IMG/VR virus record: IMGVR_UViG_3300032236_000815
Coordinates: 1 to 64,000 of that record
Length of the DNA: 64,000 nt
Direction: 5' to 3' (one strand)
From: a virus
The notes below the pieces were generated by a model. It saw only the letters and a program-made list of their open reading frames with translations. It did not search any database and was not told the DNA's origin. Shown piece by piece: positions 3,081 to 38,631 of this stretch (within the stretch, counting starts at the first letter, position 1; every line of letters starts with the position of its first letter). Position numbers and translations under genes: made by a program.

Positions 3081-3413
3081 ATGGCAATTCAATCGTATCA
3101 GATAGGTAGTGCAAACACAAACTATACAGTTTACACCAGTACAACTAGTGGAAGCCAGATTGGTAATGCTCTTACAACAATGATCATTTGCAATACAAGT
3201 AGTAGTACAACAGCAACAGTAACTATGTATGCAGTTACAAACGGTAGTTCTGCTTCTACAACCAACATGATTATCAATGCCTTGAGTATTCCAGGCGGAG
3301 AAACTGTAAGTTTAGATCAAGAAAAGTTAGTTTTAGGTTCTGGCGACTTTATTGTTGCATCGTGTAACCAAGCTAATCTTTTATCAATAACAGTGAGCAC
3401 AATTCCAGTATAA
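3081..3413 (+). CDS. Small virion protein, paralogue 1 of a ~110-aa family
   Basis: ICN...IPGGETV...EKLVL pattern shared with 7190..7522 and more loosely 28844..29164. Confidence 0.7.
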   Translation: MAIQSYQIGSANTNYTVYTSTTSGSQIGNALTTMIICNTSSSTTATVTMYAVTNGSSASTTNMIINALSIPGGETVSLDQEKLVLGSGDFIVASCNQANLLSITVSTIPV

Positions 3414-4441
3414 TGAGATACTTAAAACGTCAAACTCTTAATCGCAGAATTGCAAACGATCCATCTTTGTATGTTGATACTAAAGATGTTAATGTTATTA
3501 TGGGTGTTACAAACAGTCTAGTATTACCTAAAGGCGGCACTGCACAACAACCTGGCTATGCTGGAAATACAGATACAGCAACTCCTATTAACGGAATGAT
3601 TCGCTATAATAGCGACACTGATCAGTTTGAAGGATATCAAAATAACGCATGGCGTACATTTAGATTTAAAGAGTCTGTTGGCATTGTACAGCAGAATTTA
3701 GGTGCCGGCGACAGTAATAACTTATACTTTGGACCATTAAATCCTGCACCGCCTAGCACAGTTCAAAGTGGTAGCTCGTGGGGTGGTCAAAACATTTTAG
3801 TTGTAGTTGAAAACGTTCTTCAGTTGAATAACATCAACTATACAGTTGTACAAAACCCAACACTTCCAGCAGAAACATACACTCCAACTACAAGTTTTGC
3901 GGCAACAACTGGCTCTACAGTCTTGTACTTTAATACTAGTCTAAATGCTACAAGTGCTAGCTGGACCGGCAACGTAGCAACAATTACTTTTGCTACACAA
4001 TTACAAACTCCGTTTGCTGTTGGGTCAAGTATTATTGTAACAGGTTTTAGTCCTAGTGGTTATAACGGTACATTTACTGTCACTGGCGGCACAACCAGTA
4101 CAGTAACTTATGCGTTATTATCAAACCCAGGATCATTTCAGTATGCTGGTGCTGTAACAAGTAGTGCGGCTGTATTCCCAGCAGTAAACATTACTGGTGC
4201 CACAGTAACTGGTACAAATATTCAGTCAAGTACAACAGTTGTAAGCTATACAACTGATCCAAATACCGATGCTTTAACCAGTATTACACTGAATAAAGCA
4301 ACTGTAACATCTACTATTGCTGTCAATACTACAATTACTATTGCTGAAAGCACACAATCTGGTTCAGGCTATTACTTGAAGTTCAGTACTCCGGTTCCTT
4401 ATGGAAAAGTTGTTATAGCACTGATCGGCTTCGATCAATAA
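3413..4441 (+). CDS. Putative fibre/structural protein
   Basis: LVLPKG...GMIRYNSDTDQFEGY fibre motif; Thr-rich inserted modules; TAATG stop/start coupling with the previous gene. Confidence 0.75.
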   Translation: MRYLKRQTLNRRIANDPSLYVDTKDVNVIMGVTNSLVLPKGGTAQQPGYAGNTDTATPINGMIRYNSDTDQFEGYQNNAWRTFRFKESVGIVQQNLGAGDSNNLYFGPLNPAPPSTVQSGSSWGGQNILVVVENVLQLNNINYTVVQNPTLPAETYTPTTSFAATTGSTVLYFNTSLNATSASWTGNVATITFATQLQTPFAVGSSIIVTGFSPSGYNGTFTVTGGTTSTVTYALLSNPGSFQYAGAVTSSAAVFPAVNITGATVTGTNIQSSTTVVSYTTDPNTDALTSITLNKATVTSTIAVNTTITIAESTQSGSGYYLKFSTPVPYGKVVIALIGFDQ

Positions 4442-10900: not shown

Positions 10901-13900
10901 ACAGGTGGTGCATACGTTTCATTTGATCCGGGTACTGGCCCAAGCGACACTAGCACTTGGATTTATCGCAGAAGTCCATACATTCAAAACGTTACTACGT
11001 TTGGTCAAGGCTGTGTAGGTATGAAGATTGACGGTACATTACACAATGGCGGATTTAAATCAATGGTGTCTAACGATTTTACACAAATTGTTAGCGATGG
11101 TATCGGTATCTGGTGTTATGGTCCTGACTCTAAAACAGAAGCAGTTAGCGTGTTCTCTTATTATGCGTATGCTAGTTATTTTGCAGAAGCAGGCGGGCGT
11201 ATTCGTGCAACCAACGGTAACAGCTCATACGGTACATACGGTGTAATTGCTGAAGGATACGACACTACAGAATCTCCAGCATCCGGAGTAGTATTCAATC
11301 GTTCAAGTCAAGTTCAAGCTAACGTTCAAAGTAGTTTAGGTTTAAATGCTACATTACTAAAATTAGCTTATGCCAACGCAGGTAGTGCATACAATACAAC
11401 TACAACTAACATGTTGTATTATAGTAATAACCTAGTGAACCCAGTATGGTCACAAGATGGAACATTATCAATATTCCAAAATAGTATCGCACCAACTGGA
11501 AATGCAGAAGCATGGACACTAACTAGTACAACAGGAACAGCTGGACAAGGATACATTTATGAAAACGTTCCAATTCAACCAGCGGCTGCAATTTATAACG
11601 GGTTAACAGGTATTAACTTATCTGGCTCAGGTGTTAACGCAACCTTTAACATTACTGTAACAAGTACATCGTATGTAGTTACTGTGAACAACGGTGGTTC
11701 AGGTTATGTTGTTACTAACCAAATTTTAATCTTAGGATCTACACTTGGCGGCGTCAATGGAACAAACGATTTAACTATAACAGTTTCAAGCGTGGCAGGT
11801 AGTACAATTCTTACTGTAACACAAAGCGGTACAGTTCCAGCTGGCGCAAGTAAAACTTATTTTATCAGCACTTATATTAAACAAGGTAATGCACCGAGTG
11901 TTGATGTATACGCATTGTTTAGTGGTAGCATAGGTAACAGTGTAGGTAGTCATATGACATTTACATTCTCTACCGGGGTACTTACAGTTTCAAATACAAA
12001 CAATCCATCAGGATATGCTAGCGGTGTGATTCCACTAGCGTTTGGCGCTATTCCTCAGACAACAGCTGGCTGGTATAGAATTTGGATGAGTGTTTACGAT
12101 AGCACAGCCCAGAATAACATCTTACAGTACAGAATTTATCCAAGAGGATTTAACGGTAGTGCTGGTAATACTGTTGTTTACGGAAATCAAGTACAAACTG
12201 ATAACAATACACTAAGCTATTATCTAGAAACACAAGGAACACAATGGACTGCCTATGCTAACTATCAAGTTACTGGATCTGGAGTTGGCGCAGTAGTAGT
12301 AGGAGACGAAATCCGCGGTGGTGGCGTATTCCAATCGTTTGTTAATACTGGTGGCTCAGGTTATCTAACATCAAGTAATAATGCTCAAGGTGGTACAGTT
12401 AATTCAATCATCTTATCACAATCTGATACAAATGCCGCAAGTAATTATATTGGTATGCGTATTTTCCTTAATTCAGGTACTGGTGTAGGACAATACGGTT
12501 ATATTTCAACATACAATCCTACTACTAAAGTAGCTCAAGTGTTGCAAGAATCTTTTAACAACATAAACATTACTGCAACTAGTTCGAGCAATAATCAATT
12601 TACTCTAGCAGGCGGGTACGACACTACACAATTATATACTGGACAACTTGTACAATTTATTCCAACATATAATACTGCCGCTATTACGCAGACTAGTTAT
12701 GGTACAACTGGTATTACAGCAATTACTGGCGGAATTACAAACGTATTGAGTATTGCAAGTACAGCAATTTTACAACTTAATATGCCAATTACATTTAGTG
12801 GCGCAGGCTTGCCATCGGCTAACTTGACAACTAATTACACATATTATGTTGCTAGCATTGCTCCTAACGGAACAGATTTTAGTATTACTACAAGCATTTA
12901 CGGAGCTACATGGCCATTACAAACTCCTGCTAGTTATACTTCAGGCACAATTACAATGACATATCCAACTAATACTGGATACTTGTACGGTACAAATGCT
13001 ACAGCAAACATGTCAGTTAATCAGCCAGTAGTATTTTCTGGATCATTAATTGGCGGTGTAAGTTCTGCTACTACATACTACATTAATGATATTTTTGATT
13101 CTAATACATTTACAATTAGTAATACACTAGTGACATTAACATGTACTGCTACAAGTAGTGCAACAAACGGCATAACTGTTGGATCGACAGCAAGTTTATC
13201 AACATTTAACCCAATTTATTTTACTGGTAATACATTAGGCGGATTAATTTCTGGAACAAAATATTATGTTGCTAGAATTTTAAATAGCACTGCATTTACA
13301 GTCACTACTAACTTAGTAGTAACTACTGCTACAGCAAGCGCATTAACTAGTAACTTGATTACTGTTGCAAGCACATCTGGATTCATTGCAAACCAACCAA
13401 TTGTGTTTACAGGTCAGACTTTTGGTAATATTTCTGTTGAAACAACTTACTATATTCTAGCGATTAATAATGCTACTACATTTACAATTAGTACACAGCC
13501 TAATGGAAGTGCTGTTACATTGACTAACGGTAGTGGTAGTTTAATTGTAAGAACTAGTTCAGGAGATTCAATATTAAGCACAGGCGGCCCTGGCTCGTTT
13601 ACTGGAACAACTACAAGTGTAAAACGTTTAGTTACATTTGGTTCAGGTACCATGAATGCTACACTATCTACTAGTTTATTTGGCGGAGTAACAGCAGGTA
13701 CAAACTATTATATTGCAACTATTGGATCTAATTATTTTACAGTTAGTGCAAACGTTGGATTAAGTCCAGTACTTACATTAACATCTGCAACTGGTACTAT
13801 GAGTATTGGTAGTCCAGGTTGGGACCATGTAATACCTGGAACTCCGGTTCCAACATCATTAGATACAACAACTATCTACTTTATTGAACCAAGACCAGTA

Positions 13901-21900: not shown

Positions 21901-24900
21901 GGCAGCAGAAGTTGTAGCATACTATAACACCACTTACACATATACTGTAAGCAGTTTAGCAAGTTCAGGTAATTTAATTACAACAAGCTCTGCTCATAGT
22001 TTAACAGTTAACGATCCAATTGTGTTTGCTGGAACTAGTGCAGGTGGAATCACTGCTGGTACTGTATATTATGTTGCTAGTGTTCCAAGCACAACAACAT
22101 TTACAATTACAACAGCTGAAGGATATTTAAACAGCAATGCAGGAAGTACATATCCAACAGTTACTTTATCAACTGTAGGAAGTCCAACACTAACTGTTGC
22201 TTACTACTTTAACGTTGCACAAACACAAAGTGATATTACATATTACTTGAATGCAATCATTTACGACTTACAATACACTGGTAACTACAGAAGTTTACGT
22301 TACGCTCGTGTATTACTAAATTCAGTAAACGGTTCTGCTGGTGATAACATGTGGTTAGTTCGTAATGCTTGCGGTGTTCGCAACATGACTATGAACGGAT
22401 TGACTGGTTCATTAACTAATCCAAACAGTTATGGTACAAAACGTATCACAGGCGGTGCGTACACAAGTTTAGATCCAGGATTTGGTCCTAACGATAGTAA
22501 TGCATGGGTTAACACACGTTCAACATACGTACAAAACTGTACAATGTTTGGATATGGTGTATCAGGTGCTAAAGTCGATGCGGCTTTACACGCTGGCGGC
22601 AACAAGTCTATGGTTGCTAACGACTATACATGTATTATTGGTGACGGTATTGGTTGGTGGACAACTGGATCTGGTGCATTGGCCGAACTTGTTTCAGTGT
22701 TCAACTACTATTGCTGGGCAGGTTACCTAAGTGAATTAGGTGGCAAGATGCGAGCAACCAACGGTAACAGCTCATATGGTACATATGGTGTTGTAGCTGA
22801 AGGCACTGATACATACGAAGTTCCGTTATATGGAACAGTAAACAACCGTTATAACGCGGCACAGATTACTAATACTATAACAGACGGTACTAATCAAATT
22901 TTACGTTTAGAATTTGCAAATGCTGGTATAGCATACACTAACGCAACTACAACAATTAGCGGCAGCGGATATAATGCTACAGCATTGCAAGATGAATTCC
23001 GTGATGCAAGTATTTTTGAAACACGCCTAATTGACTTAAACAACGGCCAAGGTGTTGGTGGCACTAGCTACGTTTCAATATCTAACACTGGCCAAGGTAA
23101 CGCTACTTCTGGTATCGGTACATTTGTAATTGCCGCAACTGATACAGCATTGAGTACAGCATACGTTGGTATGAGAATTCAACTTACAGCTGGTACAGGT
23201 GTTGGACAATATGCAAACATCTTAACATATCAAAACGCAAGTAAGATTGCTCAAATTGTTAAAGATAGTTTTGTTCCATTACAAGTTGCATCAACAAGTT
23301 CAACTAACAACTTGATTACAGTGCCAAGCACAGCAACATTGTATGCAGGTCAACCAATTTATTTTGGAACAGCTATCAGTAACCTTACAGCTGGAACATT
23401 ATATTATGTAATCAGTGCAAACTTCTCTGCAACACAATTTGCAGTAAGTACTACACTAAACGGTGGCGCAGTTACATTAACTAACGTCAGTCAAGCAACA
23501 GTTACAGTTACCGCAACAGCAACAACTAATAACTTAATCACAGCAACTAACACATTAGTTGCAGGACAAGGTATTGTGTTTAGCTCTAGCTTTAACGGTA
23601 TTAATGCTGGACAAGTTTACTATGTACTATCAAATAACTTATCAACAAGTGCATTTGCAGTTAGCGTAAGTCCATTTGTAACAACTCCTGTTACAATTAC
23701 AGCAACTGGTTCAGCAAGCTCAACAGGTACAGTAAGTACAGCATTGTATGCCGCTGGTTGGGATCATGTAGTTCCAGGTACAACTATTCAGAACACATTA
23801 GATGTAACTTCATACTACATTATTGAACCACGCTTACAGTATACTGGTCCTGGATTCACAAGTACTGCTAGAACATTAGCTACAGCCGCAACATATTCTA
23901 ACGTTGCATATGGAGCTGGCAACTATGTTGCAGTAGCAACTGGTTCTACTAATACTCAATACAGTACTAACGGTAAGACTTGGGCAAGTGCTGGCGCATT
24001 ACCAAGTAGTTCAAACTGGGTTGATGTTGTATACGGTGGCGGTTACGGCGCAACAGCAACAGCAATCGTTGGCGGGTTAGGCGGATCTGGTGCAGTATTA
24101 ACAGCAGTATTAGGTACTGGATTAACAGCTGGTCAAGTTGTTGCGGTTAACGTTGTTAACGGCGGCATCAATTACAGCAGTCCTCCAACAATTACATTCA
24201 CTGGTGGTAACGGTGCAAATGCAACAGCAATAGCAACAGTATTGAATGGTGTTATCCAAACAGTTACTATGAGTGTAACCGGTTCTGGTTATACATCTGC
24301 TCCAAGTGTTGCCGCAATTACATCAGTTGTAACCGGATTTACAGTTACAAGTTATGGACAAAATTACTTCACAGCACCAACAGTAACAGTTACTGGTGGC
24401 GGCGCAAGTGTTCAAGCAACTGGTGTAGCAACATTGAACAATAACGGTGTTTATACTATTGCATTGTCAACTGGTGGTACTGGTTACACATCTCAACCAA
24501 CTGTAACAATTACAGATTCATTGGCTAAATTTGTAACAATCGCAAGTGGTACAAATAATACTGCTTATAGTACAGTTGCTAACTTAGGTAGTTCATGGAC
24601 AGCAGGTAACGCATTACCTAACACAAACTTCTTAGCATTAACATACGGTAACGGTGTTTATGTTGCAGTTGGTGGTACAACTACTACTCCAGCTATTGCA
24701 TCAAGTACAGACGGTGTAACATGGGTTAACAGAACCGCAGTTGGTTCAGTGACTTATACATCGGTTGCATACGGCAACGGATATTTCATTGCAATTGCAA
24801 GCGGAAGTAACGTAACTGCTCTAAGTACAAACGGTGTTTCATGGTCGTTAGGCGGTGTATTGCCAAGTTCAACAACTTGGTCAAGTATTACATACGGTAA

Positions 24901-27900
24901 CGGACGTTTTGTTGCTATTGCAAGCAACGGTGTTGCGGTAGCTTACAGTTATAACCAAGGTACAACATGGTATTCAAGTACTAACGTTGGTAGCCCAGGT
25001 TTACCATATACACAAAACTGGACTAAAGTTCGTTACGGTGCAGGACAATTTATGGCGGTTGCCGCAAGTCCAAACGTAACATTAACTGCTACTGCCGCAA
25101 GTACTAACTTGATTACATTAAGCAGTACTGCTAACGTTAACGTTGGTAATACTTTAATTCCAACAAGTGTGACAGAAGCTACAACAGCTACAGCTACTAC
25201 TCACGCAACAGCAACTTCAGCATCTGGAGCAATTATTACTAACGGTGTATTGACAGCTAGCAATAGTACAGGCACATTAACAAACGGTATGTTGTTGACA
25301 AGCTCTGGTACAATCGTAGCAGGTACATACATTCAAAGTACAAATACTGCATCATTTAACAGTATGATTAATACTACATTGATGACAGTGTTCAGTGGAA
25401 CTGCGCCAAGTGTAGGTATGACAGTTACTGGTGCTGGTTATGCATCTGGTACATACGTAACTAACGTAAACGTTGCTACATTTACTGGATTTATCAGCAA
25501 CGGTAACTCGGGCGTGGCTGGTACACAGCTAACAGCCGCAACTATAACATCTGGTACACTAAACACATTCCAGTTAATTACTGGCGGTACTGTAAGTGCT
25601 AACACTTATATTAGTGGTAATACACAGTTTAACACAAACAACGGTAGCTTAACTGGTAGCACACTAACATTAGGCACTGTATCTGGTTCAGTTGCTTTAG
25701 GTCAAGCAGTTGCAGGTACTGGTATTCCAACTGGTACATATATAACTGCGTTTGGTTCAGGCGGCGCAGGCGGTAACGGTACATATACTGTAGCAGGTCC
25801 TGGTATTCCAGCAGCCGCAACAGGCACAATTTCTGTAGTTGGTATTGTTTATACATTAAACAACAGCCAAGCAGTTGGTACAGGTGCAAGCCAAACATCG
25901 TTTACAGCAACTAGCTATAACGTAACTAACAGTCAATCGGTTGGTTCTGCCGCATCGCAAATTACATCAACTGGTACTAGCTATGTATTAGCTGGCCCAG
26001 GTACTGCATCGACACAAACTCAAACATCTGCAACTATTACTGGTACTAACGATTTAGTAACTGTTGGTAGTACAGCAGGTATGACAGTTGGCGAACCAAT
26101 TGCGTTTACATACTTTACAATTAGTACAACGTTAACTGCTACAAACAGTTCAGGTAACCTGTTAACAGTTGCATCAACTAGCGGCTTTACAGTTGGCGGA
26201 AGTATTATATTCACAGCAGTAACACAAAGTGGTTTATTAACTGCAAGTGCAAGTACAGGTAACTTGTTAACATTGAGCAGTACTAGTGGTTTAGTTAACG
26301 GTGAGACAATTGTATTCACCAGCGTAACACAAGCTACTACATTAACAGCAACTACTCCAAGTGCATCAACATTTACTGGTTACATTGCAGGTACAACATT
26401 GACTGTTGGTACTGTTGGTTCTGGTACGATTGCAATTGGTCAAGTATTAACTGGATCAACAACAGTTGCTGGTACTTACATTGTTGCTAACATCAGTGGT
26501 TCTGGTAACGGTTCTACATGGCAAGTAAGCGTAAGTCAAACAGTTGGTAGCTCAGGTTCACTACAAGCATTGACTGGTACAGGTAACTTGATTACATTGA
26601 ACACATCAACTGGTATGGTTGTTGGTGAATCATTTGTAGTAGGTACAAACGTCGGTAACTTGTTAACATCAAGCACATACTACATTACTAAGATTATTGG
26701 TAACCAAATTGCAGTTGGTACAAGTTCAGGCGCAACTAGCGACTTTACAGTTTCTAATACAACTGGACAAAGCGTATCTGTAACTGCTGGTACAGTATTT
26801 GGCGGCATCACAAGTGGTACAACTTATTATGTAACAAGCATAAGTGGTAGCCAAATCACTATCAGTGCATCTTACTCTGGTGCTAACTTGACATTGACCA
26901 ACGCCGCTGGAGCATGGACTTATGCATCAGGCGCCGCTTTTGGTGGTATTACAAGTGGTACAACATACTATATCTTAAGTATTCCAACACCAGGTACAAA
27001 CGGTACAATTACTGTAAGTACAAGTTATGGTGGTAGCGTACAAGCTGTAACAAGTGCCAACGGTGCTTGGACAGCAGTTGAAGGTAGTGTGTTTGGTAAC
27101 TTAGTATCAGGTACAACTTATTACATTAGCGAGGTTATTGGTAGCACACAAATTGCGCTTTCAACATCTTACGGAGCAACTACTAACTTTACACTAGCAA
27201 GCCAAAACGGTAGCTGGAGTACAACAGCTGGTAGTATATTAGGTAACTTAGTATCTGGTAACACATACTACATTACAAGTATTAGCGGTAACAACGTAAC
27301 TGTAAGTACAAGTTTAGGCGGATCAACATTCAGCTTAATTAGCGATACAGGTGCATGGACTGCCGTAATTGGTAATGCGTATGCCGCTACAAGTTGGGAC
27401 GGTATTAACTGGAGTACACAACTATTAGGCACAAGCAATAGTTGGAGTGCATTGACATACGGTAACCCAATCAGTGCTACTTTAGGCGCTCAACCAACTT
27501 GGGTAACATTAAGTAATGCGGCCGGTACAACTACCGCAGTAAGTACAAGAGCAGGTGCTACACCATTAGGCCGTGTAACTGCTAAGAGTGGTGTAATTAC
27601 TGAAATCCGTATGATTGAACCAGGTAGCGGTTATGCAAAAGGTAACGTTTCTGCAACTACAATTACAACTAACGTGATTACAGTTGATGATACTACTAAC
27701 TTACAAAACAATCAACCAGTTACATTTAATCAAAGTTCAGGTGGTATTGTAGCTGGTACAGTATACTATGTTCTATACGGTAGTATTACAGTTAGTAGCT
27801 TCCAGATTACAACAGCCTCTGGTGGTACAACAGCAATATCGTTAACAACTAGTGCGCCAACTGGTATGATTTATCGTGCAGGTGCAATTGTCACACAGAT

Positions 27901-33253: not shown

Positions 33254-34936
33254 ATGTCTAAAATCTTTAGTATTCCAATTAATCCAAAATTAAACGCTGA
33301 TCAATTCAATCAGTTTTATAAATTCTTAGCAGAATACAAAGACTATATCCGCGACATTTATTTCACCAGTAGAATCGCACCATTTATGCAAGACGCAATG
33401 GGCGATGTATTTGTTATCCACGAAGATCATTCTTATCTAATTGAAACAGCCTTGCATATTCAACGCACATTAGGGATTCCCGTTAGTGCTACATTTAACA
33501 ATATACAAGTTGCACCAACACAAAAGAATTTAGACATTTTCATTAGTAATTTTAAACCATTATATGATGCAGGAGTACGTAGTGCTACAATTCCTCATAC
33601 ACATTGGATGGCAACGGGACAGATTAAAGCGGCCTTTCCTGAATTATATGTTAAGAACACTATCCTAAGAGAAGTACATACTGCACAGGAAGTAGTTAAT
33701 TTAGCACAATACGGATTTGATTACATAAACTTAGACCGAGATCTAATGCGTGACCATGATAAATTACGAGAAATAAAACGAGCAAAAGAATATATTAAAA
33801 AAACATTAGGTAAGGATATTGCAATTAGTTTGCTTGCCAACGAAGGGTGTGCAGGCGGATGCAGTATGATGGAGGAACATTATCATTTTAACAATATACG
33901 TGAAGGTGTAAACAGTCCTCAATACTTCAATGATACAATCAGCCGTGTAAGTTGCCCTAATTGGAATGTACAAGATTCATCTATATTTCTTAAACAAGCT
34001 AATTTTACTCCTTGGAAAGCAGACTGGGACGAGTTTGTTAATGACCTTGGAATAGATAGCATTAAAATGCATGGAAGAGAAGGTATAACTAGGCTATTTG
34101 AAACTATGGAAATTGTTCGTAGATACGCTGCCGGGGAAGAATTTCTATATCCAGGATTTGAAAGATATTTAGAAGAAACTAATCTTGTTGAAAAACCTAT
34201 TAACATATGGCGCAACAAGATTAAAACATGTCGGTTTGAATGCTGGGATTGTAACTATTGCGACAAAGTATATGAAAAGAAATCTGATATAGAATTTTCA
34301 GAGTTGGTAAAACATGCCGCAGATTGTGTATTAAAATCAGGTGTACCCACTGTAAGAGTTGATGCTCCAGGATTGACTAGTGTTAGAGTACAAACGCTAT
34401 TGAACTTACTAGCGCAAGGTGTTAATACATACTTAGAAATAGGTGCCGCTCAAGGAGCAACATTCTGTGCAGTATTAAAAGACAATCCGATTCGTGCTAT
34501 TGCTGTTGATAACTGGAAACAAAATATCCAACCAGCAAATGGTCAAGTTACAATGCCGGCAAACTCTTTAAATACTTTTATTAAAAACTTTGAAAAATAT
34601 AAAGGCAATTCAAATATTAGCATTATTGATCAAGATTTATTTGAAGTAGATGTAACACCGTTTGCTGGAACAATTAAAATGATGTTCTATGACGGCCCGC
34701 ACGAAGAAGAAGTAACTAAACGTGCTATGATGCATTATGCTCCAGCATTAGAAAACGAGGCAATTGTAGTATTTGATGATGCAAACTGGCCGACAGTTGT
34801 TGCAGGTGCAAAAGCAGGTATTAAAGAAGCTGGGTTTGAAGTAGCATACGAAAAGTTAATGTTAAACGACTTAGAAGATCCTAATGCTTGGTGGAACGGA
34901 GTATATGTAACAGTTATTAGGAAAATAAATGATTAA
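33254..34936 (+). CDS. U32-family-like (TIM-barrel, Cys-rich Fe-S) domain fused to a class I SAM methyltransferase
   Basis: INLDRDLMRD, LLANEGCAGGC, SC, IKMHGRE, CRFECWDCNYC in the N-terminal part; YLEIG..QGATF, VDNW, FYDGPH, VFDD in the C-terminal part. Confidence 0.65.
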   Translation: MSKIFSIPINPKLNADQFNQFYKFLAEYKDYIRDIYFTSRIAPFMQDAMGDVFVIHEDHSYLIETALHIQRTLGIPVSATFNNIQVAPTQKNLDIFISNFKPLYDAGVRSATIPHTHWMATGQIKAAFPELYVKNTILREVHTAQEVVNLAQYGFDYINLDRDLMRDHDKLREIKRAKEYIKKTLGKDIAISLLANEGCAGGCSMMEEHYHFNNIREGVNSPQYFNDTISRVSCPNWNVQDSSIFLKQANFTPWKADWDEFVNDLGIDSIKMHGREGITRLFETMEIVRRYAAGEEFLYPGFERYLEETNLVEKPINIWRNKIKTCRFECWDCNYCDKVYEKKSDIEFSELVKHAADCVLKSGVPTVRVDAPGLTSVRVQTLLNLLAQGVNTYLEIGAAQGATFCAVLKDNPIRAIAVDNWKQNIQPANGQVTMPANSLNTFIKNFEKYKGNSNISIIDQDLFEVDVTPFAGTIKMMFYDGPHEEEVTKRAMMHYAPALENEAIVVFDDANWPTVVAGAKAGIKEAGFEVAYEKLMLNDLEDPNAWWNGVYVTVIRKIND

Positions 34937-36455
34937 AAAAGTTAAAAAAATTATAGTATTTGGTGGCGGAACTAGCGGTTGGCTAACAGCCGCCTACTTA
35001 GTTAAAAACTTAACTATACCTGCAGAAGTTGTTCTTATCGAAGATGCAAGTGCAGGCCCTATTGGAGTAGGTGAAGGTACACAACCATTTACTGCTAGAT
35101 TTTTATACGAAGCTGGAATACCGCCTAAGGCATGGATGAAGTCTAGTCAAGCGGTATTTAAATACGGTGTAGAAATTACAGGATTTAACGAAGAACCATA
35201 TTTTGTCGATAACGATGTGCCAACAAATTGCATGATTGGTCAAGGGTTATTTGTCAGCGATTATTTTGTCGACAGACCATACAGCGAAGTACGAGATTGG
35301 CACCCAGCATATCAGCTTGCTAAAAATAATATTAGTAGCAAATACGACGATTACCTAGATGCTAATCACGGTTCGGGTCCTGATAGCTACGGTGCAGTAC
35401 ATTTTAATGCATTTGATATTATTAAAACAATCAAAGAAATCATACTAGATAAAATTACATACGTCGACACACGCATTTCAGATGTAAAACAAGATAAAGA
35501 TGGCATAACAAAACTAGTAGCACAGGACGGTAGCGAATATATTGCAGATTTATATTTGGATTGTACAGGTTTTTCTAGTTTACTATTAGAAAAGACACTA
35601 GGATCTCCGTTTACCAACTATTCGCCTTGGCTCCCATGCGATAGTGCTGTAGCAATGCCTACTGAATTTAAAGATAAGCGAGCAGAAATGCATCCTTATA
35701 CAAAATCAACAGCTATGACTTCTGGGTGGAGATGGACTATTCCTACCTTCACGCGAATAGGCAATGGTTACGTTTACAGTAGTAAACACATTACGCCCGA
35801 GCAAGCTGAGAAAGAGCTACGTGAAAGTATTGGCGAATTTAATGCTCCTGCAAAACATCTTAAAATGAAATGCGGAGTACACAAAGAAATCGCAGTTAAA
35901 AATGTGTGTGCTGTTGGACTAAGTGCTGGATTCATTGAGCCTTTAGAAGCGACTGGCATTACGTTTACAACAGCAACAGTACAAAGCATTGCAGAAATAT
36001 TAAACATCAACGGCAACGTGTGGAATGACTATGCAAGAACAAATCTAAATGCTGGATTTTACGAAATGACTACTGAAATTTTTGCATTTGTATGGGCACA
36101 CTATTATTTTAGTAGTAAAAATGATACACCATTCTGGCAAGATATTAGAAATATGAAAATTTCTGACTTACCACAAGAAGTACAAGACATATTAAATGTA
36201 TTTTTAGAAAGACCACTGCCGTTTATTTTCTTAAAACCAAACAGCATGTTCTGTACATTCCAATGGTTTACGATGTTACATGCTGGAGGCGCATATAAAA
36301 ATGTTACTAGTAGCTTAACTCCTAAGCAAAAAGAATACAGTAAATATTTCTTAGATTCTCACTCGGCTCGAGTCGAGCTGGCGAAGAAGATGTTTCCTAA
36401 TCAATACGAATATTTACAATCTTGGTACAGCGACTGGGAATCAGAGGAGATATAA
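34929..36455 (+). CDS. Flavin-dependent halogenase, tryptophan-halogenase (PrnA-like) family
   Basis: GGGTSG FAD motif, IGVGEGT, conserved Lys in VFKYG, YLDCTGF, GWRWTIP (WxWxIP), GLSAGFIEPLEATG. Confidence 0.85.
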   Translation: MIKKVKKIIVFGGGTSGWLTAAYLVKNLTIPAEVVLIEDASAGPIGVGEGTQPFTARFLYEAGIPPKAWMKSSQAVFKYGVEITGFNEEPYFVDNDVPTNCMIGQGLFVSDYFVDRPYSEVRDWHPAYQLAKNNISSKYDDYLDANHGSGPDSYGAVHFNAFDIIKTIKEIILDKITYVDTRISDVKQDKDGITKLVAQDGSEYIADLYLDCTGFSSLLLEKTLGSPFTNYSPWLPCDSAVAMPTEFKDKRAEMHPYTKSTAMTSGWRWTIPTFTRIGNGYVYSSKHITPEQAEKELRESIGEFNAPAKHLKMKCGVHKEIAVKNVCAVGLSAGFIEPLEATGITFTTATVQSIAEILNINGNVWNDYARTNLNAGFYEMTTEIFAFVWAHYYFSSKNDTPFWQDIRNMKISDLPQEVQDILNVFLERPLPFIFLKPNSMFCTFQWFTMLHAGGAYKNVTSSLTPKQKEYSKYFLDSHSARVELAKKMFPNQYEYLQSWYSDWESEEI

Positions 36456-36886
36456 TGTTAAACCAATTAAATTCAAATCAATATACAATATACACAGTAC
36501 AAACTCGAGGCAAGAAAAACGATGCTTATGAAGATTCAAAAATTGACAGAGATCGTTTTAAATTACGTCGATGGGTTGAAGCATTGTTAGCAGATAGGGA
36601 AGTTATCATGTTCTGGACTGAAGAGGATACAGATTACATGATGGTTGGAACTACAAAAGTTAATCCTGGTGAAGGATTTGCTGAGTTGCCAAAAGATTTG
36701 CCAACAATAAAATGTAACGTAAACGGCAAAGAAGTTGACGAGCCGCAATTTATTACTTTTCACTGCGTACCTGGAAGGGAAATTGCTACAGTCGATGTTG
36801 ATCACATAACAAAGTTCATAGTTAGTATTGAAGGTCTTGTAGAATTAACACAAAAAGTACTAAGGGAAGAAGCAAATGGTTCGTGA
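36455..36886 (+). CDS. Hypothetical protein (143 aa; start moved to ATG 36455)
   Basis: GAGGAG RBS and TAATG coupling with the halogenase stop support this start over 36422. Confidence 0.65.
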   Translation: MLNQLNSNQYTIYTVQTRGKKNDAYEDSKIDRDRFKLRRWVEALLADREVIMFWTEEDTDYMMVGTTKVNPGEGFAELPKDLPTIKCNVNGKEVDEPQFITFHCVPGREIATVDVDHITKFIVSIEGLVELTQKVLREEANGS

Positions 36887-37448
36887 TGATTTTATTGGTA
36901 TCTTTGACAATGTACTCACTCCTGCCGAATGTGGTGAGTTAATTGATTATTTTGTAAAAATGCGAAAACTAAATTTAGTTTACAAACGTCCAGATGCTCC
37001 TCATGAAAAGAAGGACGAAACAGTATATCCGTTCGAACCAGATTCTTTACATTTTGTTGGCACAAATCCAGTAGTACAAAGTATTATGGAAAAAGTCTGG
37101 AAGTGTTATAACGAATATTGTGATAATTTCAGTATCCTGACACTAAAAAATGAACAGGGTGTAACTGGTATGCGTGTACAACGTACCCAGCCAGGCGGTG
37201 GATACCATCAGTGGCATTATGAAAATCAAGGAATAATGCATTCAAATAGATTTTTAGTTTTTCAAATCTATCTTAATACAGTTACAGAAGGCGGCGAGAC
37301 TGAATTCTTGTATCAAAAAACTAGAGTAAATGCACAGCAAGGCAGGGTGTTGCTATGGCCAGCGGCATTTACACATACACATAGAGGAAATCAACCATTA
37401 AGCGGCGACAAATATATTGTTACCGGATGGATTGAATACTTAAACTAA
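36876..37448 (+). CDS. 2OG-Fe(II) oxygenase (prolyl-hydroxylase-like, H-x-E type)
   Basis: GGGYHQWHYE, YLN...GGETEF, WPA.FTH.HRG, KY..TGW. Confidence 0.85.
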   Translation: MVRDDFIGIFDNVLTPAECGELIDYFVKMRKLNLVYKRPDAPHEKKDETVYPFEPDSLHFVGTNPVVQSIMEKVWKCYNEYCDNFSILTLKNEQGVTGMRVQRTQPGGGYHQWHYENQGIMHSNRFLVFQIYLNTVTEGGETEFLYQKTRVNAQQGRVLLWPAAFTHTHRGNQPLSGDKYIVTGWIEYLN

Positions 37449-37449
37449 C

Positions 37450-38631
37450 ATGAAAAAACGTCTCGGAATTATCGGAGTAGGATCAGCAGGTATACTAAGT
37501 CTAAGTTACTTCTGTGCCCACTTGGATAATACATGGGAAGTTGTTAGTATTAACGATCCTAACGGTAAAATATTAGGAATTGGAGAAAGTTCTAACCCGA
37601 GTTTTGTTTCAGCATTAGAAGCAGGGCTTGGATTTAATATGTATGACGATATTAAAGAGCTAGATGCTACATATAAATTTGGCACAATGTGGAAAACTTG
37701 GAGAGACAAAGAGTTTATATCTCCACTGCTAGGTGGTAATACTGCTATACATTTTAACAATTTTAAATTAAAAGAATTTGCTATTCCTAGGTTACATCAA
37801 CGTTGGCCGCATAAGTTTAGCGAGCTATCGGGTAAGGTAGAAGAACTTATCGGCCACGCTTCTCATGTTGATGTTGTTGTAGACGGCGTTAATCATCAGT
37901 ACAATTATATTATAGATTGCAGAGGTTTCCCTACAGAATGGGACGATTATAATATTTGTGAAAATATGCCAGTTAATCATGCACTAGTACACAACAAAGA
38001 TCTACCCGGCGATTGGATGTACACAGGACACCGTGCCCACAAAAATGGTTGGATGTTTGAAATCCCGTTAACTAACAGACAAAGCTATGGATATTTGTTT
38101 AACAATAACATAACTACAGTAGAAGATGCTAAGAAAGATTTTAGTCAAGAAATCGATGTGCCAGTTGATCAGCTACAAAATATAGAATATAAGTTTCAAA
38201 GTTTTTATACTACTAAACTTTTAGATGGTAGAATTTTAAAAAATGGAAATAGAGCTATTTTCTTTGAACCTATTAGTGCTACTAGTTTGTTTATGTATGA
38301 TCAAGCTAATCGAATATTCCTTAGCTACTTAAATCACAGTATTGAAACTCCTGAAAGAGTTAATAAAGAATTTATAAATGTAGCAAGTGCATTGCGCGAG
38401 TTAATTTGCTGGTTCTATCACGGTGGCAGTACATATGATACACCGTTTTGGCAAGCAACGAAAGAAAAAACTCGACCAGTAGTAGAAAATAGTCAGATGA
38501 TGAAAATGTTAAAACATAGTTATGCTGAGTGGATTGCTAAAGATAGTCCTATGTATGCTGACAAATTTTTCTTCGAACCGCATTTAATGTTACAACTAGA
38601 CAAAAACTTTCAATATAATTATTTCAAATGA
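37450..38631 (+). CDS. Second, shorter tryptophan-halogenase-family flavoprotein
   Basis: GVGSAG, LGIGES, ATYKFG, IIDCRGF, GWMFEIP (variant of WxWxIP), GNRAIFFEP. Confidence 0.75.
   Translation: MKKRLGIIGVGSAGILSLSYFCAHLDNTWEVVSINDPNGKILGIGESSNPSFVSALEAGLGFNMYDDIKELDATYKFGTMWKTWRDKEFISPLLGGNTAIHFNNFKLKEFAIPRLHQRWPHKFSELSGKVEELIGHASHVDVVVDGVNHQYNYIIDCRGFPTEWDDYNICENMPVNHALVHNKDLPGDWMYTGHRAHKNGWMFEIPLTNRQSYGYLFNNNITTVEDAKKDFSQEIDVPVDQLQNIEYKFQSFYTTKLLDGRILKNGNRAIFFEPISATSLFMYDQANRIFLSYLNHSIETPERVNKEFINVASALRELICWFYHGGSTYDTPFWQATKEKTRPVVENSQMMKMLKHSYAEWIAKDSPMYADKFFFEPHLMLQLDKNFQYNYFK

Follow-up and report, generated by a model that had tools for sequence, protein, structure and literature searches.

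Here we report that a giant tail fibre gene in a 64,000-nucleotide (nt) stretch of viral DNA (positions 1 to 64,000 of IMG/VR record IMGVR_UViG_3300032236_000815; hereafter the window) carries an insert that is probably a recursive in-frame domain-insertion array with the topology of a nest. The gene (P0001; 15926–28831) is an intact open reading frame (ORF) of 4301 amino acids (aa) with Pfam and PHROGs matches, and the 768-aa insert (aa 3049–3816; 25070–27373) lies in the hairpin of one blade of a predicted β-propeller. Two module types, A and B, recur in the insert as halves and as complete copies. All features described below lie on the plus strand; positions are those of the window and aa numbers are those of P0001, unless stated otherwise.

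From the N to the C terminus, the units of the insert (N, N-only; C, C-only; c, closing strand) read A1N [B1N B2N B3N B4 B3c B2c B1c] A2N A3N A4N [B5] A5 A4C A3C A2C A1C. Written as brackets, this order becomes ( [ [ [ [] ] ] ] ( ( ( [] () ) ) ) ), a well-formed expression with two bracket kinds and zero crossings. Module A contributes four N-only units, one complete unit and four C-only units; module B contributes three N-only units, one complete unit and three closers, plus an extra complete copy. All A units match one complete-A profile and all B units one B profile, so that receiving and inserted modules belong to the same domain family. An initial annotation of this DNA had counted five N-halves and five C-halves for A, and four of each for B, which is right if the innermost complete copy counts as both an N and a C; its list did not include B5, the additional complete B (aa 3481–3545).

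Module A is a β module of about 70 aa. Six complete copies of A elsewhere in P0001 (aa 680, 1672, 2015, 2461, 2535 and 3915) supplied its profile, and the same six were cut into an N-half and a C-half to give strict half-profiles, with 20 shuffles and the reversed sequence as controls. The strict N-half profile detects the N-only halves A2, A3 and A4 (aa 3375–3395, 3410–3430 and 3445–3465; 26048–26320), scoring 13.1, 7.0 and 11.3 bits at 3376, 3410 and 3445, compared with maxima of 2.9 for the shuffles and 0.6 for the reversed sequence. The outermost N-only half, A1 (aa 3060–3080; 25103–25165), was assigned by motif and by family-trained profiles and is divergent (TNLITL...LIPT), ending in LIPT as opposed to IVFT. 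The innermost copy, A5 (aa 3553–3621; 26582–26788), is complete and aligns with positions 1–71 of the full-length A profile (independent E-value (i-E) 5.9e-4). It is followed by A4C, A3C, A2C and A1C (aa 3622–3668, 3669–3719, 3720–3768 and 3769–3816; 26789–27373), assigned by the A profile and the C-half profile. Their matches (3619–3663, 3670–3714, 3721–3767 and 3772–3810) span only profile positions 18/24 to 65/67, with full-length i-E values of 3e-7, 5e-5, 4e-6 and 0.012 and strict C-half scores of 20.1, 9.5, 17.6 and 7.4 bits, where the controls reach 6.3 at most. The strict profiles place three of five N-halves and four of five C-halves above every control. Motif counts agree with this concentration: five of the eight N-motif sites in the protein (aa 3061, 3376, 3411, 3446 and 3554) and five of the six xTYY[IV] sites (3582, 3631, 3678, 3729 and 3778) fall inside the region.

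The ends of the halves are complementary. N-only units of A end in ...IVF-T and run on into a linker of about 13 aa, xVTQxxxLTAT, which complete modules lack, and C-only units start in the loop xxxFGGI, which follows that same IVF-T strand in complete modules. In the window insert, the module is split at a single insertion point, after the second strand (...IVF-T / xxxFGG...). One could alternatively regard the 35-aa N-type and 49-aa C-type units as self-sufficient small folds lying side by side in two separate tandem arrays, the equal counts arising by chance or from the same distance to be spanned for the return to the blade. The extra linker strand fits such a view, as it means that the N-only units are not bare halves. 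The match of N-only and C-only units to complementary, non-overlapping parts of one complete-module profile speaks against it. In the PDB, the A profile came closest to the apoproteins of C-1027 and macromomycin (E 0.5 and 1.7, neither significant), and the first half of A resembles, likewise non-significantly, the N-terminal strands of these enediyne chromoproteins; the likeness is a possible hint of an immunoglobulin-like sandwich fold in A.

Module B, of about 60 aa, was traced with a 65-position profile built from 466 family sequences and is unrelated to A (hhalign probability 0.35%). Three N-only parts (aa 3102–3142, 3142–3185 and 3193–3239; 25229–25642) align with profile positions 1/5 to 45/49 of 65, with scores of 9.3, 17.6 and 20.8, and lead to an innermost complete copy, B4 (aa 3238–3293; 25637–25804; positions 3–55, score 41.5). 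Three closing strands follow (aa 3306–3318, 3328–3340 and 3350–3359; 25841–26002). Two of them were assigned with a position-specific scoring matrix, which gave 15.4 at 3308 and 10.7 at 3330, whereas the maxima of shuffled sequences averaged 8.8 and the reversed sequence reached 8.9; as the highest shuffled value was 13.8, the closer at 3330 is marginal. The third, TSYVLAGPG (~3351), was assigned by eye from its likeness to GTYTVAGPG of the complete copy, both carrying the AGPG variant. The extra copy, B5 (aa 3481–3545; 26366–26560), between A4N and A5 near the tip, is complete (positions 1–65, score 85.5), and a further complete B lies outside the region at aa 1779–1842. The B module of our query is also matched by P0071 (228 aa), a minor capsid or cement protein (PF23982, E 1e-18; PF22758, E 2e-16) in which the family match spans 216 residues for a 149-position profile. 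B also occurs as an insert in other phage structural proteins, such as P0071, and thus appears to be a portable surface module; that it binds something is a guess.

We then asked where the insert sits in its host domain. The motif W..xYGxGxFVA...S.DG..W repeats at aa 2662, 2907, 2949, 2990 and 3037, which points to a β-propeller, and comparison of these blades places the insert between two strands of one of them. The first strand of the split blade occupies aa 3037–3048 (25034–25069) and the blade resumes at aa 3817–3830 (27374–27415), so that the coordinates proposed in the initial annotation for the insert, 25070–27373, are exact. In a relative, P0004, the orthologous blade is continuous: it reads KYGAGLFVAIASSTAVCATSPDGLVW without any insert and then has the same GNPISSTLGAQP continuation. 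Because this blade is uninterrupted, the region is a true loop insert, and its two ends must meet. P0004 carries a 13-level nest of its own (aa 828–1900 of P0004) at a different site. The flanks of that nest map to aa 1768–1959 and 1957–2108 of P0001, where the junction is continuous in the window; the site is probable rather than certain, because the upstream flank matches the paralogous stretch 1217–1400 of P0001 better. For an array to fit into more than one loop of a folded scaffold, its ends have to coincide, and nesting provides that. Another blade of the same putative propeller (~24083–24625; fibre aa ~2720–2900) carries an insert of about 200 aa made of repeated units, and a match to phrog_460, 'head closure Hc2', falls within that insert area (aa 2800–2885).

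To see how general the balance of halves is, we collected relatives. A word-indexed search returned 44 proteins, including the query, and an exhaustive search with aa 3375–3816 against 1.84 billion representatives returned 194 proteins at E<=0.001, 13 of them at E<=1e-30. Forty-six long relatives (P0001–P0046) were tokenised with the half-profiles, at thresholds that gave zero hits on reversed sequences, and N-only and C-only units were counted around the deepest complete copy. Counts were equal in 18/46 proteins with the first tokeniser and in 13/46 with the second; their union comprises 22 linear nests and the branched, well-formed nest of P0020, or 23/46, with values of 3/3, 4/4, 5/5 and 6/6. 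In the nest of P0004, 12 N-only units repeat every ~35 aa and 12 C-only units every ~49 aa, with one complete module between the two series. Nesting depth therefore varies among relatives, as the initial annotation had suggested one should check, with 3, 4, 5, 6 or 12 N-only and C-only units; homologues with unequal halves, which it had named as a refutation, were looked for and no clear case was found among the 46, nor any grossly unequal array among the tokenised relatives. In P0004, the N linkers read xVTQTPTLTAT at most levels and xxxVNTTxTxT at levels 5, 8 and 11, and two C units (the fifth and the ninth in sequence order) contain an IPTPG insert; no relation between these two patterns was found.

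These comparisons also bear on the two tandem arrays. Equal counts occur at five depths, the innermost unit is always a complete module, and some relatives carry branched, well-formed nests, for example ( ( ( ( () ) ( () ) ) ) ), a pattern that simple length matching does not predict. In the distant proteins P0055 and P0064, the 'C-only' tokens mark a simple tandem of complete modules whose N part is shortened. Tokens are hence not trustworthy in proteins this distant, and the same proteins show that reduced modules can exist, as separate arrays would require. Together with the mirror-specific signal described below, this makes two side-by-side arrays an unlikely explanation.

Low-complexity sequence rich in Thr, Ser, Gly and Val could in principle produce a nest-like pattern by chance, as could an assembly artefact. 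The composition is indeed biased, and short closers such as the one at 3330 are barely above the shuffled maxima. Profile scores are well above the reversed and shuffled controls, and the architecture is kept in orthologues at 76–82% identity and in more distant relatives. At the DNA level, 24900–27600 contains no tandem repeat except a 9-nt unit present 2.4 times, so the pattern is not a recent amplification or an assembly artefact, and we rejected both; the ORF, too, is intact over all 4301 aa. The repeat units are old and diverged. A single 30-mer is the only exact word of >=20 nt common to the region and the rest of the contig. We regard chance or artefact as extremely improbable.

If the array is a nest, N-half and C-half should be coupled in mirror order. 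We measured mutual information between extended N and C units in 9 non-redundant nests (50 pairs). Summed over N-by-C positions, it is in excess for mirror pairing (z=3.78; 0/1000 within-nest shuffles reach this value) and not for parallel pairing (z=0.77). Under a stricter null, in which one permutation is applied to all nests of equal depth and the orthology effect is kept, mirror pairing gives z=2.71 (2/1000) and parallel pairing -0.54. P0004 alone gives a mirror z=1.79 (p 0.031). A Mantel test on P0004 yielded r 0.57 (p 0.0006) for mirror and r 0.42 (p 0.015) for parallel order; we give it little weight, as it is weakened by three mis-registered N units and by divergence at both ends. Overall, these statistics suggest a modest mirror-specific coupling.

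The same data address pairing between chains. In an oligomer, the N-array of one chain might complete the C-array of its neighbour by domain swapping, in which case the counts must match yet no chain need fold back. Trimeric fibres are common among phages. For the Si3 insertion of RNA polymerase, the account of PMC11515920 also reports that recursively inserted domains exchange strands. Here, however, the insert interrupts one blade, which continues immediately behind it, so that the chain has to come back; the complete innermost module supplies the turn. Branched well-formed nests and nests at different sites come naturally with nesting within one chain, and parallel pairing shows no excess of mutual information. 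We therefore consider pairing between chains quite improbable.

Several observations weigh against a nest. Neither A1N (3060) nor either half of A5 is detected by the strict profiles, which were trained only on modules outside the region; these halves were recognized by motif, full-length and family-trained profiles. No Pfam match was found for modules A or B in the region, and searches of the PDB with the region, the A profile and the B profile gave no significant sequence relative of either. The automatic count left 23/46 relatives unbalanced, off by 1–3 tokens and falling into seven groups. One member was read in five of these groups, and all five come out balanced: P0004 has one stray N hit 235 aa upstream and is otherwise 12/12, P0011 a branch module with a weak N, P0016 an extra 'N' that is a divergent complete module, and P0029 two N-halves below threshold plus a branch, while P0031 is balanced once its outermost N is counted. 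P0030 keeps one unmatched C-half after reading, and P0046 two. With identities of 30–70% all round, levels could not be matched one-to-one between relatives of different depth, as direct evidence for matched gain or loss of a given level would require. When the outermost and innermost levels are dropped, the mirror excess falls to z=1.40 (p 0.074), and part of the mutual-information signal may thus be positional, an end effect exemplified by the outermost N, which ends in IPT as against VFT elsewhere, and its mirror C, which begins with ILG as against VFG. A partner-matching log-odds score trained on 198 complete modules (Meff 174) gave no clear signal, with mirror z values from -1.60 to +1.52 across 18 nests. 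Weighing these points against the split-profile matches, the continuous blade of P0004, the balance in relatives and the mirror mutual information, we find recursive in-frame self-insertion, as inferred in the initial annotation, to be supported.

In the architecture that we propose, A would be opened at one loop, after its second strand, and would hold a copy of itself, five levels deep. The chain would run out through A1N to A4N, turn in the complete A5 and return through A4C to A1C, with the linker of about 13 aa carrying it on to the next level. Each level would be one discontinuous domain, N-half k pairing with C-half k in mirror order. B would be self-nested four levels deep inside level 1 of A, with one complete B just before the A5 turn. 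The propeller would thereby carry an A arm of five levels, with a B arm of four levels at the base of that arm and a single B close to its tip. As the first and last residues of the array would belong to the same domain, all 768 aa could sit in the blade hairpin, from which the arm, possibly stiff, would project sideways, and its length could change only in matched N plus C steps. A likely role is that of a spacer arm of the virion fibre, holding B-type modules off the fibre body for contact with the host surface, with depth and branching as the evolvable variables.

The initial annotation knew of no serial self-nesting of one repeat module in a phage fibre. Our literature searches likewise found no phage-fibre precedent; outside fibres, the phenomenon has been published. 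The Si3 insertion in the β' subunit (RpoC2) of cyanobacterial RNA polymerase is described as consisting of recursively inserted SBHM/HABAS domains (PMC11515920, PMC13114784, PMC10895346), with eight SBHM domains, four of them discontinuous, forming a 150-Å body in the trigger loop, an architecture established by crystal and cryo-electron microscopy structures (PMC10895346). As described there, Si3 resembles the architecture proposed for the fibre insert in that a small β domain sits inside its own copies, domains are built from distant parts of the chain, an elongated array occupies a loop of a host domain, and branching nodes occur. They differ in that a propeller of a virion fibre takes the place of the polymerase as host; A and B show no detectable sequence relation to a Pfam family or PDB chain and are not assigned to the SBHM/HABAS fold (CATH 2.40.50.100); two unrelated module types are each self-nested; and the fibre array keeps strictly to a single insertion point and a 35-aa/49-aa period. 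Relatives of the fibre also range from 4 to 13 levels, deeper than the six cited for Si3. What is new here is the host protein, the use of two module types, the greater depth in relatives and probably the module folds; nesting itself was already known from Si3.

Two other systems invite comparison. The contractile sheath proteins of T4 (gp18) and its relatives have been likened to a 'Russian doll', with domain II inserted in domain I, and III and IV in turn (PMC6088184). These too are phage structural proteins with nested domains; as portrayed in that source, they differ in combining two to four different folds at a depth fixed within each family, with no length-variable arm. The second system is not viral. 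In the streptococcal antigen I/II adhesins, an N-terminal series of A-repeats pairs in mirror order with a C-terminal series of P-repeats, giving a long stalk whose far end bears the head; that stalk is a pair of an α-helix and a polyproline helix, with no split globular domains and no domain insertion.

The same nesting grammar is found in two other fibre genes of the contig. A second nest, of different construction, lies in a 2651-aa paralogue (12560–13815; aa ~1540–1957 of that protein). There, an outer N-only half and complete modules are followed by two A modules opened at a later loop (...TFTIS / ...AFTVT), and the closure consists first of returning strands, which are short, and finally of an entire C-only half (STSLFGGVTAGTNYY...). 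Module A thus seems to accept inserts at two loops. A third fibre gene, outside the window at 78738–83444 of the 88,584-nt contig, is an open frame of 1569 residues from stop to stop and contains a two-level A nest, ( () ), followed by a complete module. The 30-nt word mentioned above is shared by the C-half of A3 in the window (26978–27007) and this third gene (79944), which suggests exchange of modules between fibre genes. A third small module, TVVTVTY...F..GQ.I.I.G..P..YNGTW.VT, is complete near the N terminus of the window protein (aa ~118–165 and ~850–890) and sits inside a B module in P0029 (aa 1400–1500 and 2100–2170 of P0029); at least three module types therefore take part in nesting.

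The N terminus of P0001 carries seven CBM_5_12-type repeats (Pfam PF02839, E 9.1e-29, 7 stretches), and the protein belongs to the tail fiber family phrog_9851 of PHROGs (E 7.4e-142, 6 stretches, best at aa 4107–4243). Its neighbours are the 2651-aa paralogue, also in phrog_9851 (E 3e-135), a 1137-aa tail sheath and further virion genes. The sheath is 41–46% identical to those of the jumbo myoviruses PA5oct and Atu_ph07. The insert region itself had zero matches among 50,697 GenBank phage records by blastn or tblastn. Directly downstream of the fibre genes, 33254–38631 encodes two members of the tryptophan-halogenase family (E 2.6e-99 and 8.7e-69), together with a phrog_1458 protein that weakly matches a DNA-methyltransferase family.

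The equality in number between two repeat types makes a selective constraint plainly readable from the sequence. The finding bears on the evolution of fibre reach and host recognition. In the annotation and modelling of giant phage fibres, parsers expecting contiguous domains will miss nests, and Pfam is blank in the region. If mirror pairing holds, recursive self-insertion would not be confined to RNA polymerase and would offer a repeatedly usable means of making long, length-tunable and branchable arms, with any surface loop as a possible site, and in protein design nested arrays could act as extendable struts. A 2026 survey covering 2.7 million domains (PMC13114784) singles out the six-level recursion of Si3, which P0004 would exceed with its 13 levels; the supplementary tables of that survey may list deeper cases.

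For the giant fibres of uncultured jumbo and T4-like phages, we see an even balance for and against a broader reading, in which self-nested small β modules serve as a general grammar for building side arms. It comprises, jointly, that any loop of a folded scaffold can receive an array with coinciding ends, that arms change length in matched N plus C steps from 4 to at least 13 levels, that they branch and carry binding modules, and that modules are swapped between the fibre genes of one genome. If this is true, no recursive domain insertion known so far would be deeper or more regular, and its folds would not yet be among solved structures. It would also give these phages a route of host-range evolution distinct from the swapping of tip domains.

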